A stretch of 64,000 nt of DNA from NCBI RefSeq assembly GCF_046105845.1, contig NZ_CP151004.1. The stretch is one strand, 5' to 3'. The translations under genes were made by a program, and so were the position numbers. Origin of the DNA: Escherichia coli. Lineage in GTDB: Bacteria > Pseudomonadota > Gammaproteobacteria > Enterobacterales > Enterobacteriaceae. The notes beneath the pieces were generated by a model that was not told the DNA's origin, did not search any database, and saw only the letters and a program-made list of their open reading frames with translations. Positions 13,161-57,593 of this stretch are shown piece by piece; positions within the stretch are counted from its first letter, which is position 1, and every line of letters begins with the position of its first letter.

Positions 13161-13494
<334 letters not shown>

Positions 13495-21492: not shown

Positions 21493-21559
21493 GAGAGAAA
21501 ACCCCCGCACGTTGCAGGTATGCACCTGACAACACCACGGGGGCTAATCTTGACTCTAG
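21493..21559 (-). ncRNA. rdlD: Rdl antisense sRNA, copy 1 (ends approximate)
   Basis: On the minus strand a CCCCCG…CGGGGG hairpin followed by UUUUCUCUC (intrinsic terminator) lies antisense to the ldr leader; boundaries inferred from the recalled ~66-nt Rdl length. Confidence 0.55.
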
Positions 21560-21609
21560 ACCACTCAAGAATAGCCGCGAAACGTTGTCATTACAACACA
21601 GGCGGCTAT

Positions 21610-21975: not shown

Positions 21976-22042
21976 GAGAGAAAACCCCCGCACGTTGCAG
22001 GTATGCACCTGACAACATCACGGGGGCTAATCTTGAACCCAA
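21976..22042 (-). ncRNA. Rdl antisense sRNA, copy 2 (ends approximate)
   Basis: Same hairpin plus U-tract as copy 1, 483 bp downstream. Confidence 0.5.
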
Positions 22043-22092
22043 ACAACTCAAGAATAGCCGCGAAACGTTGTCATTACAACTCAGGCGGCTAT

Positions 22093-26193: not shown

Positions 26194-26946
26194 ATGGCCG
26201 TACTGGGATTGCAGGGGGTGCGGGGAGGCGTGGGGACAACAACCATCACCGCCGCATTAGCCTGGTCATTACAAATGTTGGGAGAAAATGTCCTGGTGGT
26301 CGATGCCTGCCCGGACAACTTGTTGCGCCTGTCATTTAACGTTGATTTTACCCACCGTCAGGGCTGGGCCAGAGCTATGCTGGATGACCAGGACTGGCGT
26401 GACGCCGGGTTGCGCTATACCTCGCAGCTCGATTTGCTGCCTTTTGGTCAGTTATCCATTGAAGAACAAGAAAATCCACAGCACTGGCAAACCCGGCTGA
26501 GCGATATTTGCTCCGGCTTACAGCAACTCAAAGCCAGCGGGCGTTACCATTGGATTTTAATCGACTTACCGCGTGATTCCTCGCAGATAACCCACCAGCT
26601 GCTGAGTTTGTGCGATCACTCGCTGGCAATCGTCAATGTGGATGCCAACTGCCATATCCGACTGCATCAGCAAGCGCTACCGGATGGCGCACATATTTTG
26701 ATTAATGACTTCCGTATCGGCAGTCAAGTTCAGGACGATATTTACCAGCTTTGGTTGCAAAGCCAGCGCCGATTACTGCCGATGCTCATTCATCGTGATG
26801 AAGCGATGGCTGAATGCCTGGCGGCTAAGCAACCAGTCGGTGAATACCGCAGTGATGCGCTGGCGGCTGAAGAGATACTGACGCTGGCTAACTGGTGCCT
26901 GTTGAACTATTCCGGGCTGAAAACGCCAGTCGGGAGTGCATCATGA
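26194..26946 (+). CDS. bcsQ: Cellulose biosynthesis protein BcsQ (ParA/MinD-like ATPase), 250 aa, intact
   Basis: Uninterrupted 250-codon ORF, MAVLGLQGVRGGVGTTT…; codon 6 is TTG (Leu) at 26209-26211. Confidence 0.92.
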   Translation: MAVLGLQGVRGGVGTTTITAALAWSLQMLGENVLVVDACPDNLLRLSFNVDFTHRQGWARAMLDDQDWRDAGLRYTSQLDLLPFGQLSIEEQENPQHWQTRLSDICSGLQQLKASGRYHWILIDLPRDSSQITHQLLSLCDHSLAIVNVDANCHIRLHQQALPDGAHILINDFRIGSQVQDDIYQLWLQSQRRLLPMLIHRDEAMAECLAAKQPVGEYRSDALAAEEILTLANWCLLNYSGLKTPVGSAS

Positions 26947-31917: not shown

Positions 31918-33024
31918 ATGAATGTGTTGCGTAGTGGACTCGTGACGATGCTGCTGCTGGCTGCCTTTAGTGTTCAGGCAGCCTGCAACTGGCCTGCCTG
32001 GGAGCAGTTCAAAAAGGATTACATCAGTCAGGAAGGGCGCGTCATTGACCCAAGTGACGCGCGTAAAATCACCACTTCCGAAGGGCAAAGTTACGGCATG
32101 TTCTTTGCCCTGGCGGCTAACGACCGTGCAGCTTTCGATAATATTCTCGACTGGACGCAGAACAATCTCGCTCAGGGTTCTTTAAAAGAACGTTTGCCCG
32201 CATGGCTGTGGGGCAAGAAAGAGAACAGTAAGTGGGAAGTGCTGGACAGCAATTCGGCCTCCGATGGTGATGTCTGGATGGCCTGGTCGTTGCTGGAGGC
32301 GGGGCGTTTGTGGAAAGAGCAGCGTTATACCGACATCGGCAGCGCGTTGTTAAAACGTATTGCGCGGGAGGAAGTGGTGACGGTGCCTGGGCTGGGTTCC
32401 ATGTTGTTGCCGGGCAAAGTGGGATTTGCAGAGGATAACAGCTGGCGTTTTAACCCCAGCTACCTGCCGCCGACGCTGGCGCAGTATTTCACCCGCTTTG
32501 GCGCGCCGTGGACTACGCTGCGCGAAACCAATCAACGTTTATTGCTGGAAACCGCCCCGAAAGGCTTTTCGCCAGACTGGGTGCGCTATGAGAAAGACAA
32601 AGGCTGGCAGCTAAAAGCCGAAAAAACATTGATCAGCAGCTACGACGCGATCCGCGTTTACATGTGGGTAGGCATGATGCCTGACAGCGATCCGCAAAAA
32701 GCGCGGATGCTCAACCGGTTTAAACCGATGGCGACATTCACCGAGAAAAACGGCTATCCGCCAGAAAAAGTGGATGTGGCTACGGGGAAAGCGCAGGGTA
32801 AAGGACCGGTCGGTTTTTCTGCCGCCATGCTGCCCTTTTTACAAAACCGCGATGCGCAGGCCGTTCAGCGCCAGCGCGTGGCCGATAACTTTCCCGGCAG
32901 CGATGCCTATTACAACTATGTGCTGACCCTGTTTGGACAAGGCTGGGATCAACACCGTTTCCGCTTCTCGACAAAAGGTGAGTTATTACCTGACTGGGGC
33001 CAGGAATGCGCAAATTCACACTAA
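31918..33024 (+). CDS. bcsZ: Endo-1,4-beta-glucanase (GH8), 368 aa
   Basis: ORF-track start at 31912 is TTG; ATG at 31918 gives [21 protein letters not shown]… signal peptide and the expected 368 aa. Confidence 0.93.
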
Positions 33025-36000
33025 ACATATTCACGCTTTCTCTCGGTCTGGCCGTCATGCCGATGGTCGAGGCAGCACCAACCGCTCAGCAACAGTTGCT
33101 GGAGCAAGTTCGGTTAGGCGAAGCGACCCATCGTGAAGACCTGGTGCAACAGTCGTTGTATCGTCTGGAACTTATTGATCCGAATAACCCGGACGTCGTT
33201 GCCGCCCGTTTCCGTTCTCTGTTACGTCAGGGCGATATTGATGGCGCGCAAAAACAGCTCGATCGGCTGTCGCAGTTAGCGCCGAGTTCAAATGCGTATA
33301 AATCGTCGCGGACCACAATGTTGCTTTCCACGCCGGATGGTCGTCAGGCACTGCAACAGGCAAGATTGCAGGCGACGACTGGTCATGCAGAAGAAGCTGT
33401 GGCGAGTTACAACAAACTGTTCAACGGTGCGCCGCCGGAAGGTGACATTGCCGTCGAGTACTGGAGTACGGTGGCGAAAATTCCGGCTCGCCGTGGCGAA
33501 GCGATTAATCAGCTAAAACGCATTAATGCGGATACGCCGGGCAATACGGGCCTGCAAAACAATCTGGCGCTATTGCTGTTTAGTAGCGATCGCCGTGACG
33601 AAGGCTTTGCCGTCCTGGAGCAGATGGCGAAATCGAACGCCGGGCGCGAAGGAGCCTCTAAAATCTGGTACGGGCAGATTAAAGATATGCCCGTCAGCGA
33701 TGCCAGTGTGTCGGCGCTGAAAAAATATCTCTCGATCTTTAGTGATGGCGATAGCGTAGCTGCGGCGCAATCGCAACTGGCAGAACAGCAAAAACAGCTG
33801 GCCGACCCTGCTTTCCGCGCTCGTGCGCAAGGTTTAGCGGCGGTGGACTCTGGTATGGCGGGTAAAGCCATTCCCGAACTACAACAGGCGGTGCGGGCGA
33901 ACCCGAAAGACAGTGAGGCACTGGGGGCGCTGGGCCAGGCGTATTCTCAGAAAGGCGATCGCGCCAATGCGGTGGCGAATCTGGAAAAAGCCCTCGCCCT
34001 GGATCCGCACAGCAGCAACAACGACAAATGGAACAGTCTCCTGAAAGTAAACCGCTACTGGCTGGCGATCCAGCAGGGCGATGCTGCGCTGAAAGCCAAT
34101 AATCCTGACCGGGCAGAACGCCTGTTCCAGCAGGCGCGCAATGTCGATAACACCGACAGCTATGCAGTGCTGGGGCTGGGTGATGTGGCGATGGCGCGCA
34201 AAGATTACCCTGCAGCCGGACGTTATTATCAGCAGACGCTACGGATGGACAGTAGCAACACTAACGCCGTGCGCGGTCTGGCGAATCTTTATCGCCAGCA
34301 ATCGCCGGAAAAAGCCGAAGCGTTTATCGCCTCGCTCTCTGCCAGCCAGCGGCGCAGCATTGATGATATCGAACGCAGCCTGCAAAATGACCGTTTGTCA
34401 CAGCAGGCAGAGGCACTGGAAAAACAGGGCAAATGGGCGCAGGCAGCAGCACTTCAGCGCCAGCGACTGGCGCTGGACCCCGGCAGTGTATGGATTACTT
34501 ACCGACTTTCACAGGATCTCTGGCAGGCCGGACAACGCAGCCAGGCCGATACGTTAATGCGTAATCTGGCGCAGCAGAAGCCGAACGACCCGGAGCAGGT
34601 TTACGCTTACGGGCTGTATCTCTCTGGCCATGACCAGGACAGAGCGGCGCTGGCGCATATCAACAGCCTGCCGCGCGCGCAGTGGAACAGCAATATTCAG
34701 GAGCTGGTTAATCGACTGCAAAGCGATCAGGTACTGGAAACCGCTAATCGCCTGCGAGAAAGCGGCAAAGAAGCTGAAGCGGAAGCGATGCTGCGCCAGC
34801 AACCACCTTCCACGCGCATAGACCTCACGCTGGCTGACTGGGCGCAACAACGACGTGATTACACCGCCGCCCGCACTGCATATCAGAATGTCCTGACGCG
34901 GGAGCCAGCTAACGCCGATGCCATTCTTGGTCTGACGGAAGTGGATATTGCTGCCGGTGACAAAGCGGCGGCACGTAGCCAGCTGGCGAAGCTGCCTGCC
35001 ACCAATAACGCCTCGCTGAACACTCAGCGGCGCGTGGCGCTGGCACAGGCGCAGCTTGGCGATACCGCAGCGGCGCAGCAGACGTTTAATAAGTTGATCC
35101 CGCAGGCAAAATCTCAGCCACCGTCGATGGAAAGCGCGATGGTGCTGCGCGACGGTGCGAAGTTTGAAGCGCAGGCGGGCGATCCAACGCAGGCGCTGGA
35201 AACCTACAAAGACGCCATGGTTGCATCCGGTGTGACCACGATGCGTCCACAGGATAACGACACCTTTACCCGACTGACCCGCAATGACGAGAAAGATGAC
35301 TGGCTGAAACGCGGCGTGCGCAGCGATGCGGCGGACCTCTATCGTCAGCAGGATCTTAACGTCACCCTCGAGCACGATTACTGGGGTTCGAGCGGCACCG
35401 GTGGTTACTCCGATCTGAAAGCGCACACCACCATGTTGCAGGTGGATGCGCCGTACTCTGACGGGCGGATGTTCTTTCGCAGTGATTTCGTCAATATGAA
35501 CGTCGGCAGTTTCTCCACTAATGCCGATGGCAAATGGGATGACAACTGGGGCACCTGTACATTACAGGACTGTAGCGGCAACCGCAGCCAGTCGGATTCC
35601 GGTGCCAGCGTGGCGGTCGGTTGGCGAAATGACGTCTGGAGCTGGGATATCGGCACCACGCCGATGGGCTTCAACGTGGTGGATGTGGTCGGCGGCATCA
35701 GTTACAGCGATGATATCGGGCCGCTGGGTTACACCGTTAACGCCCATCGTCGGCCCATCTCCAGTTCTTTGCTGGCCTTTGGTGGGCAAAAAGACTCTCC
35801 GAGCAATACCGGGAAAAAATGGGGCGGCGTGCGTGCCGACGGCGTGGGGCTAAGCCTGAGCTACGATAAAGGTGAAGCAAACGGCGTCTGGGCATCGCTT
35901 AGCGGTGACCAGTTAACCGGTAAAAATGTCGAAGATAACTGGCGCGTGCGCTGGATGACGGGCTATTACTATAAGATCATCAACCAGAATAATCGCCGTG

Positions 36001-36479
36001 TGACCATTGGTCTTAACAATATGATCTGGCATTACGACAAAGACCTGAGTGGCTACTCACTCGGTCAGGGCGGTTACTACAGCCCGCAGGAATACCTGTC
36101 GTTTGCCATACCGGTGATGTGGCGGGAGCGCACGGAAAACTGGTCGTGGGAGCTGGGGGCGTCTGGCTCGTGGTCGCATTCACGCACCAAAACCATGCCG
36201 CGTTATCCGCTGATGAATCTGATCCCGACCGACTGGCAGGAAGAAGCTGCGCGGCAATCGAACGATGGCGGCAGCAGTCAGGGCTTTGGCTACACGGCGC
36301 GGGCATTACTTGAACGACGTGTTACTTCCAACTGGTTTGTCGGCACGGCAATTGATATCCAGCAGGCGAAAGATTACGCACCCAGCCATTTCCTGCTCTA
36401 CGTACGTTATTCCGCCGCCGGATGGCAGGGTGACATGGATTTACCGCCGCAGCCGCTGATACCTTACGCCGACTGGTAA
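33006..36479 (+). CDS. bcsC: Cellulose synthase outer-membrane subunit (TPR repeats plus beta-barrel), 1157 aa
   Basis: 1157-aa ORF with signal peptide, recognised as BcsC; start overlaps bcsZ 3' end by 19 nt. Confidence 0.95.
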
Positions 36480-36560
36480 GTTTTCAGATAGCGCCTCTCT
36501 TAATGCCGCTGCGATCGGGTATACTCGGGCGGCAATCTGGGATTTCCGGGGGGAGACAAT

Positions 36561-38549
36561 TTGCGCGTAAGTCGCTCGTTAACAATCAAGCAGATGGCAA
36601 TGGTGGCAGCCGTTGTCCTGGTGTTCGTTTTTATTTTTTGCACCGTTTTGCTGTTCCATCTGGTCCAGCAGAATCGCTATAACACGGCTACGCAACTGGA
36701 AAGCATTGCTCGCTCTGTCCGCGAACCCTTATCTTCAGCTATTTTGAAAGGCGATATTCCCGAAGCGGAAGCTATTCTTGCCAGCATTAAACCGGCAGGC
36801 GTGGTCAGCCGTGCCGATGTAGTGCTGCCTAACCAGTTCCAGGCGCTGCGTAAAAGTTTTATTCCAGAGCGTCCGGTGCCGGTAATGGTTACTCGCATGT
36901 TTGAGCTACCGGTTCAAATCTCGCTGGGTGTCTACTCGCTCGAACGTCCGGCAAATCCGCAGCCAATTGCCTATCTGGTGCTACAGGCGGATTCCTTCCG
37001 CATGTATAAGTTCGTGATGAGCACCCTCTCAACGTTAGTGACCATTTACTTACTTTTGTCGTTAATATTGACGGTGGCGATTAGCTGGTGCATTAACCGC
37101 CTGATTTTGCATCCGTTACGCAATATTGCTCGCGAACTTAACGCCATCCCTGCCCAGGAGCTTGTTGGTCACCAACTGGCATTACCACGTCTGCATCAGG
37201 ACGATGAAATCGGTATGCTGGTGCGCAGTTACAACCTCAACCAGCAATTGCTGCAGCGCCATTATGAAGAACAGAACGAAAACGCGATGCGCTTCCCGGT
37301 GTCGGATTTGCCGAACAAAGCCTTGCTGATGGAGATGCTGGAGCAGGTTGTCGCGCGTAAACAAACCACCGCGCTGATGATCATCACCTGTGAAACCCTG
37401 CGTGATACTGCGGGCGTGCTGAAAGAGGCGCAACGAGAAATTCTGCTGCTGACGCTGGTGGAAAAACTCAAATCGGTACTGTCGCCACGTATGATCCTCG
37501 CGCAGATTAGTGGTTATGACTTTGCTGTCATTGCCAACGGGGTACAGGAACCGTGGCACGCAATCACTTTGGGTCAGCAAGTGCTCACTATCATGAGCGA
37601 GCGCCTGCCGATTGAACGTATTCAACTCCGTCCGCACTGTAGCATTGGCGTGGAGATGTTCTACGGCGATCTCACCGCCGAACAGCTTTACAGTCGCGCT
37701 ATTTCTGCGGCATTTACCGCTCGCCATAAAGGCAAGAATCAGATTCAGTTCTTTGATCCGCAGCAGATGGAAGCCGCCCAACAGCGGTTGACGGAAGAGA
37801 GCGATATCCTTAATGCACTGGAAAATCATCAGTTTGCGATTTGGTTACAGCCACAGGTCGAGATGACCAGCGGTAAACTGGTCAGTGCAGAAGTGTTACT
37901 GCGTATCCAGCAACCGGATGGCAGTTGGGATCTGCCGGATGGCTTAATCGATCGCATTGAGTGCTGTGGGCTGATGGTTACCGTCGGTCACTGGGTGCTG
38001 GAAGAGTCCTGTCGATTGCTTGCTGCCTGGCAAGAGCGCGGCATTATGCTGCCCTTGTCGGTAAACCTCTCAGCGCTGCAACTGATGCATCCAAATATGG
38101 TGGCGGATATGCTGGAACTGTTAACCCGCTATCGCATTCAGCCGGGAACACTGATTCTGGAAGTGACAGAAAGCCGACGTATTGACGACCCTCATGCTGC
38201 GGTGGCAATCCTCCGTCCGTTGCGTAATGCCGGAGTTCGGGTGGCGCTGGATGATTTCGGCATGGGCTATGCGGGGCTGCGTCAGCTGCAGCATATGAAA
38301 TCGTTGCCAATCGACGTACTGAAAATCGACAAAATGTTTGTTGAAGGTTTGCCGGAAGATAGCAGCATGATTGCTGCAATTATCATGCTGGCGCAGAGCC
38401 TGAACTTACAAATGATTGCCGAAGGCGTGGAGACTGAAGCACAACGCGACTGGCTGGCAAAAGCGGGCGTTGGTATTGCCCAGGGCTTCCTTTTTGCTCG
38501 CCCACTCCCTATTGAAATCTTCGAAGAGAGTTACCTGGAAGAAAAGTAG
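36561..38549 (+). CDS. pdeK: c-di-GMP phosphodiesterase (HAMP-GGDEF-EAL), ~650-662 aa
   Basis: ORF with N-terminal TM helix and C-terminal EAL domain, recognised as PdeK (YhjK); longest frame starts at TTG 36561, alternative ATGs 33-39 nt downstream. Confidence 0.9.
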
Positions 38550-57225: not shown

Positions 57226-57241
57226 AGTTTTACTCAGACAT

Positions 57242-57347
57242 AAAAAAAACCCGGCATAGGGGACCGGGAAGAGGATAGTCTGCCGTCTCCAGACTAATAA
57301 ACCGTTATAACACTCCCTGTTGGCACGGGAAACTTTGTGCTCTCAGT
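57242..57347 (-). ncRNA. gadY: GadY small RNA (antisense to the gadX 3' UTR)
   Basis: Minus-strand sequence ACTGAGAGCACAAAGTTTCCCGTGCCAACAGGGAGTGTTATAACGGTTTATTAGTCTGGAGACGGCAGACTATCCTCTTCCCGGTCCCCTATGCCGGGTTTTTTTT matches recalled GadY and ends in a hairpin plus U8 terminator. Confidence 0.85.
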
Positions 57348-57593
57348 AAGTTAAATATAACTTTTACTGGAAATAAGATCAGCCATTTTTTTATAAACAT
57401 AAGCTATACGCTGTGCGAAAATATATTCGTGCTGCATTTACTTATTATCAATTAACTGTTATGCAAAACTACTTTGTGGATAAATTTTGGTCCTACCAAA
57501 TCTGGCAGTTTTTGCGCTAAGAAACAGTCTGGCATCATTTCATTAGTATACTGAAATTGAAATAATCGCAGTAATGAAATATAAGGGATAGTC

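Follow-up and report, generated by a model that had tools for sequence, protein, structure and literature searches.

We have high confidence that pdeK (yhjK; hmsP in PGAP), the gene of a cellulose-linked c-di-GMP phosphodiesterase, is translated from a UUG codon at position 36561, and that its product is a protein of 662 amino acids. Positions refer to the window, the whole stretch of Escherichia coli DNA that was analysed, which is 64,000 nucleotides long. A first-pass annotation of this DNA had listed three candidate starts, the TTG at 36561 and the ATG codons at residues 12 and 14, with products of 662, about 651 and 649 aa, respectively. All three codons are present in the raw sequence, and the lengths are correct. 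The same annotation treated the choice between them as an open uncertainty, but the TTG is backed by ribosome profiling published in 2016, by the curated K-12 record, by RefSeq and by the ortholog comparison described below. The TTG is already known as the start of pdeK and is an ordinary annotation point; as such the question matters little, since the databases already carry the right start. Historically the ambiguity was real: the 2006 K-12 annotation used ATG14, giving 649 aa (PMC4909307).

The start codon and its Shine-Dalgarno site

The complete pdeK coding sequence, 662 codons plus stop, occupies positions 36561..38549 on the + strand, as supported by the open reading frame (ORF) list, RefSeq, Pfam and NCBIfam. 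It is opened by the TTG at 36561–36563, which is the first ATG, GTG or TTG codon past the upstream in-frame stop, with 19 open codons between the two. Inspection of the sequence places in-frame ATGs at 36594–36596 (codon 12; 651 aa if used as the start) and 36600–36602 (codon 14; 649 aa), and codons 15 (36603) and 21 (36621) are further in-frame GTGs. The gene 5ʹ of pdeK is bcsC (33006..36479, + strand, from the ORF list and the RefSeq annotation of identical DNA), whose stop codon ends 81 nt ahead of the pdeK start, and the downstream neighbour is dctA (38732..). A 59-aa ATG ORF in another frame (36503..36682, + strand, +2 frame) overlaps the start region; in a search of the supplement to the profiling study described below, it did not appear alongside yhjK. 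We also considered, and rejected, a start upstream of 36561: the TTG is the first start-type codon after the in-frame stop, and several species have a stop five codons upstream.

The local sequence is shared very widely. Positions 36380–36760 are 100% identical to K-12 MG1655 and were found in 5,421 of 5,426 complete E. coli genomes. PGAP/RefSeq records open the coding sequence at the position matching 36561, with a length of 1989 nt, and the curated NC_000913.3 record for pdeK (b3529; 3683630..3685618; NP_417986.4) likewise gives 1989 nt and a TTG start.

Immediately ahead of the TTG, six Gs followed by AGA form the Shine-Dalgarno site GGGGGGAGA (36548..36556, + strand), whose GGAG core (36552–36555) lies 5 nt ahead of the start codon. 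The assignment draws on the sequence itself, on the predicted duplex with the anti-Shine-Dalgarno at the 3ʹ end of 16S rRNA, and on conservation between species. The predicted duplex energy of -9.4 kcal/mol compares with a window-wide mean of -2.5 kcal/mol, and 1% of positions lie at or below -9. This site is the sole feature near the candidate starts that exceeds chance. Scanning 36300–36800 yielded no σ70-like promoter or terminator, and the bcsC-pdeK spacer together with the 5ʹ coding region (36480–36640) folds at -46.6 kcal/mol (z = -0.06 relative to shuffled sequences), giving no sign of regulatory structure. A 9-bp hairpin, GGCAAUGGU-GGCA-GCCGUUGUC (36596–36617), is predicted from the sequence of this window; it encloses ATG14 and GTG15.

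The first-pass annotation had named ribosome profiling as the kind of data that would decide the start, and such data, published in 2016, favour the TTG. Nakahigashi et al. trapped initiating ribosomes in E. coli with tetracycline (TetRP) and screened every in-frame NUG codon lying no more than 60 nt from a start of the 2006 annotation (PMC4909307). Row 51 of their Supplementary Table S2 assigns yhjK a new initiation site at 3683641 (U00096.2), a shift of -39 nt to a TTG codon; read depth at this TTG was 37.6, 53.1 and 21.1 in the three samples, against zero in each of them at ATG14, the start of the 2006 annotation (PMC4909307). The new site shows zero difference from the 2014 re-annotation, and Table S3 of the study replaces the 2006 coding sequence (3681653..3683602, 649 aa) with 3681653..3683641 (PMC4909307). 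ATG12 was called neither as a new nor as a second start, whereas a “2nd initiation candidate”, given with no read depth, is listed at +21 from ATG14, which is the GTG at codon 21 (PMC4909307). The N-terminal peptide column of Table S2 is blank for yhjK, and the gene falls outside the set validated with lacZ fusions, its confirmation column reading “6. nt” (PMC4909307).

Other start-site resources did not add to this. The TRAINSPOTTER N-terminomics supplements, INRI-seq and Giess et al. 2017 contain no match to yhjK, pdeK or b3529, and these names are not mentioned in the text of the retapamulin Ribo-RET preprint. Searches for literature on conserved TTG starts, and for papers pairing yhjK with “start codon”, returned nothing relevant. 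N-terminal proteomics, the other check named in the first-pass annotation, is poorly suited to this start because tryptic digestion would cleave the protein after Arg2 or Arg5, right at its true N-terminus.

Conservation of the start codon and the N-terminal tail

We collected 80 pdeK loci by scanning a single genome for each species, across Escherichia, Citrobacter, Salmonella, Klebsiella, Enterobacter, Kluyvera and other Enterobacteriaceae. The loci are 73–98% identical over the first 300 aa, and 78 distinct sequences were compared. Every one of the 78 keeps the TTG start. At codons 2–11 the amino acid is fixed in all 78, with two to five synonymous codons in use per position, and throughout the 13 codons ahead of ATG14 the first and second codon positions are fixed while the third positions are free, which is the pattern of translated sequence. 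Upstream of the Shine-Dalgarno site there is no conserved frame, with 10–27 different codons per position among the 78. Frame-specific conservation ends exactly at the TTG and begins at codon 2; the substitution pattern is that of purifying selection at the amino-acid level, starting exactly at pdeK codon 2. The ribosome-binding signal is retained together with the start codon: GGAG is found at -16..-4 in 76 of the 78 sequences, 5–9 nt from the start codon, and in 66 the spacing is 7 nt. Four of the loci (L055, L056, L073 and L078) have an in-frame stop five codons upstream of the TTG and no start-type codon between the two.

TIKQMAMV was among the six peptide patterns by which the 80 loci were gathered, and this introduces a mild ascertainment bias. 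A tail-free search controls for this bias. Residues 36–238 alone were used as the query against 1.84 billion representative proteins, and the matches carry exactly 35 residues ahead of the domain, opening with MRV[SR]RSLTIKQM.

The same elements are found beyond these 78 sequences. We examined 12 loci of distant pdeK orthologs, at 31–62% identity, from Pectobacterium, Sodalis, Baumannia and metagenomic contigs. Both the TTG and GGAG are retained in ten of the 12 (L083–L088, L090, L092, L094 and L095). In the other loci the start differs: L093 has a GTG at the start position, with a TGA two codons upstream, and L089 has a TTA there and, four codons upstream of that, a new ATG. Public automatic gene calls often begin at Met12 or Met14, as in the MTAVSAV... 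forms in Pectobacterium and Brenneria.

The NCBIfam model of the family also describes the longer protein. The 662-aa form scores 779 bits against the NCBIfam HmsP equivalog NF008807.1, for which the cut-off is 733 bits; the second-best family reaches 267 bits and stays far under its own cut-off. The alignment of the 662-aa form covers model positions 1–663, whereas the 649-aa form aligns from position 14 and scores 756.8 bits, a loss of 22 bits.

Codons 1–13 (36561..36599, + strand), the cytoplasmic N-terminal tail specific to the 662-aa form, are the longest invariant run of the whole protein, ranking first among 650 windows of 13 residues in 74 distinct full-length orthologs. The tail is nearly unchanged in homologs whose GAPES3 regions are only 31–50% identical. 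The orthologs in Pectobacterium and Brenneria (proteins P0064–P0120) are short, at only about 381–394 aa, with GAPES3, HAMP and a weak GGDEF domain (for example L083 601-1785, in P. carotovorum), and they have no EAL domain ahead of the downstream dctA-like gene. Judged by these sequences, the “phosphodiesterase” of this lineage has apparently shed its catalytic domain and kept the tail, the TTG and the Shine-Dalgarno site.

Alternative starts

Translation might instead begin at ATG14 (36600..36602, + strand), with the upstream 39 nt serving as a 5ʹ UTR. ATG is the canonical start codon, this one was the annotated start in U00096.2, and the resulting 649-aa numbering persists in the principal functional work on PdeK (PMC7397504). 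We nonetheless reject ATG14 as extremely improbable, on the strength of the TetRP data, duplex energies and conservation. The codon has a TetRP depth of zero in all three samples (PMC4909307), and it sits within the predicted 9-bp stem. The anti-Shine-Dalgarno duplex over the 20 nt before it is predicted at -2.2 kcal/mol here and at a mean of -2.0 kcal/mol over the 78 species. The codon itself is not conserved, being ATA or ACG in three of the 78 sequences and encoding A, T, V, I or L in distant orthologs, whereas the 13 codons that precede it evolve like translated sequence. In favour of a start at ATG12 (36594..36596, + strand; 651 aa), Met12 is shared by all 78 Enterobacteriaceae sequences and is almost invariant among distant orthologs, and as an ATG it is chosen by some public automatic gene calls in Pectobacterium and Brenneria. 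Against this, the duplex energy is -0.4 kcal/mol here and averages +0.65 kcal/mol over the 78 species, none of which has a Shine-Dalgarno site before codon 12 or codon 14. The codon went uncalled in a screen of in-frame NUG codons within 60 nt (PMC4909307), and codons 2–11 ahead of it are under strict selection at the amino-acid level. Moreover, locus L094 has Ile in place of Met12, and no Met14, yet retains the TTG and the tail. We regard ATG12 as an internal Met codon that has only the slightest chance of being the main start.

Could the UUG be the main start of two, with a minor truncated form initiating at ATG12 or at GTG21 (36621..36623, + strand, within the first transmembrane helix)? 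The TetRP table gives GTG21 as its second candidate, and the same study reports many genes with two starts (PMC4909307). There is also a weak Shine-Dalgarno-like match ahead of GTG21 (-4.9 kcal/mol), and the near-invariant Met12 is compatible with a minor internal start, though it is not evidence for one. However, the GTG21 candidate comes with no read depth, and tetracycline profiling probably also traps some ribosomes in early elongation. Codon 21 is GTG in 47 of the 78 species and CTG, TTG, GCG or others elsewhere, and a product begun there, with about 15 residues of the first transmembrane helix and no charged tail, would probably be non-functional. The comparison of these species lends no support to a minor product from either codon. 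We consider dual initiation unlikely. Codon 20 is ATG in most species and CTG in E. coli.

The preferred reading thus remains initiation at the UUG, to which TetRP depth, ortholog invariance and database annotation all point. We propose that the anti-Shine-Dalgarno of the 30S subunit would pair with the site at 36548–36556, setting the UUG in the P site, and that initiator tRNA would decode the UUG as fMet to begin the 662-aa protein. ATG12 and ATG14 would then be read as ordinary internal methionine codons.

The tail, the weak start codon and known systems

The domain order of the pdeK product is that expected for PdeK/YhjK/HmsP: a first transmembrane helix, a periplasmic GAPES3 domain, a second transmembrane helix, HAMP, a degenerate GGDEF domain and EAL. 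Pfam places GAPES3 at residues 36–155, HAMP at 178–231, GGDEF at 247–394 (a weak match of 41.6 bits) and EAL at 415–648, and there is an EVL motif at residues 444–446. Kyte-Doolittle analysis detects hydrophobic segments at about residues 13–35 and 150–184. The former is the first transmembrane helix (36597..36665, + strand), an assignment that also agrees with the helix in the AlphaFold model and with the start of GAPES3. The first-pass annotation was right that the choice of start alters the cytoplasmic tail ahead of this helix: residues 1–12 contain three Lys/Arg residues and no Asp or Glu, and give way to the hydrophobic core at about residue 13. In the AlphaFold model a single helix spans residues 7–62 and runs on through the first transmembrane segment (mean pLDDT 85, with residues 1–4 below 50); as a monomer model, it carries no information on contacts of the tail. 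No solved structure in the PDB covers residues 1–225.

What is the functional significance of a conserved tail behind a UUG codon? Positive charge on the cytoplasmic side of the membrane favours an N-in orientation (the positive-inside rule). With its three positive charges and its lack of acidic residues, the tail should therefore favour N-in, placing GAPES3 in the periplasm. Under this proposal, the first 11–12 residues would form a short cytoplasmic tail that leads straight into the first transmembrane helix and fixes the topology, with the GAPES3 sensor periplasmic and HAMP, the degenerate GGDEF domain and EAL cytoplasmic. The tail charges thus probably set the topology of PdeK. A periplasmic GAPES3 domain agrees with the published domain description, and the cytoplasmic part of K-12 PdeK has c-di-GMP phosphodiesterase activity in vitro (PMC7397504).

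The start codon may matter for a separate reason. UUG is a weak start codon, less efficient than AUG. The TTG is kept in all 78 Enterobacteriaceae sequences and in ten of the 12 distant loci, even though ATG and GTG, each one substitution away, would also serve as starts. Such retention suggests that weak initiation and low dosage are under selection. We infer that the UUG holds PdeK abundance low, and that it is conserved for this reason. Strict conservation of the UUG suggests that PdeK dosage is tuned in translation, which is relevant to the idea of PdeK as a local c-di-GMP sink beside cellulose synthase. More tentatively, the tail may be a functional unit, perhaps a sequence-specific juxtamembrane motif on the cytoplasmic side that signalling or docking to the cellulose synthase complex requires, with the weak UUG under selection to hold this local c-di-GMP sink at a low copy number; we judge this reading to be less likely than not. 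If it is true, experiments based on the 649-aa form used PdeK without its most conserved element.

There is a practical caution here, because functional studies of PdeK still follow the obsolete 649-aa start (PMC7397504). Richter et al. (2020) number PdeK by the 649-aa form of the annotation before 2014, in which the cytoplasmic part is 148–649, the substitutions are E431A/V432A and the periplasmic-loop deletion is 26–136 (PMC7397504). E431 and V432 of that numbering are E444 and V445 in the 662-aa protein. Constructs built on the 649-aa annotation might lack the conserved tail. A construct cloned from a Met12 or Met14 start would be missing the three positive charges before the first transmembrane helix and the 13 most conserved residues of the protein.

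Other features of the window lie around the bcs cluster and beyond. The window carries an intact bcsQ ORF of 250 aa (26194–26946) with Leu (TTG) at codon 6. In K-12, bcsQ is interrupted at codon 6 by a TAG stop, which eliminates cellulose production (PMC7397504). The window therefore derives from an E. coli strain other than K-12, one that is proficient in cellulose production. The rdlD antitoxin RNA is present in two tandem copies on the - strand, at 21496–21561 and 21979–22044 (Rfam RF01813; 87 and 90 bits), which indicates a duplicated ldr/rdl toxin-antitoxin module adjoining the bcs cluster. Further Rfam matches in the window are GadY (57237–57350), ES205, RtT beside a tRNA (13161–13405) and naRNA4.

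The nearest known counterpart of this gene is pdeK (yhjK, b3529) of K-12 MG1655. The two have the same flanks (bcsC upstream and dctA downstream), coding sequence length, TTG start, Shine-Dalgarno site and domain order. They differ at 40 nucleotides and five residues (M113L, Q199K, E365A, Q408K and E599G, with the window residue first). As an initiation site, yhjK resembles ftsH, potA, rfaQ and yedI, for each of which TetRP likewise moved the start from an ATG to an upstream or nearby UUG. Unlike that of yhjK, the starts of these four genes were also verified by lacZ fusions and start-codon mutations; what all five share is a non-AUG start, preceded by a Shine-Dalgarno site, that is seen as a tetracycline-trapped initiation peak. 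As a protein, PdeK exceeds the cut-off of the equivalog family “biofilm formation regulator HmsP”, which is named for the Yersinia pestis phosphodiesterase. In Yersinia, the partner of HmsP is the Hms polysaccharide system. The partner system of E. coli PdeK, in contrast, is the pEtN-cellulose synthase, through contacts with BcsB and DgcC (PMC7397504).
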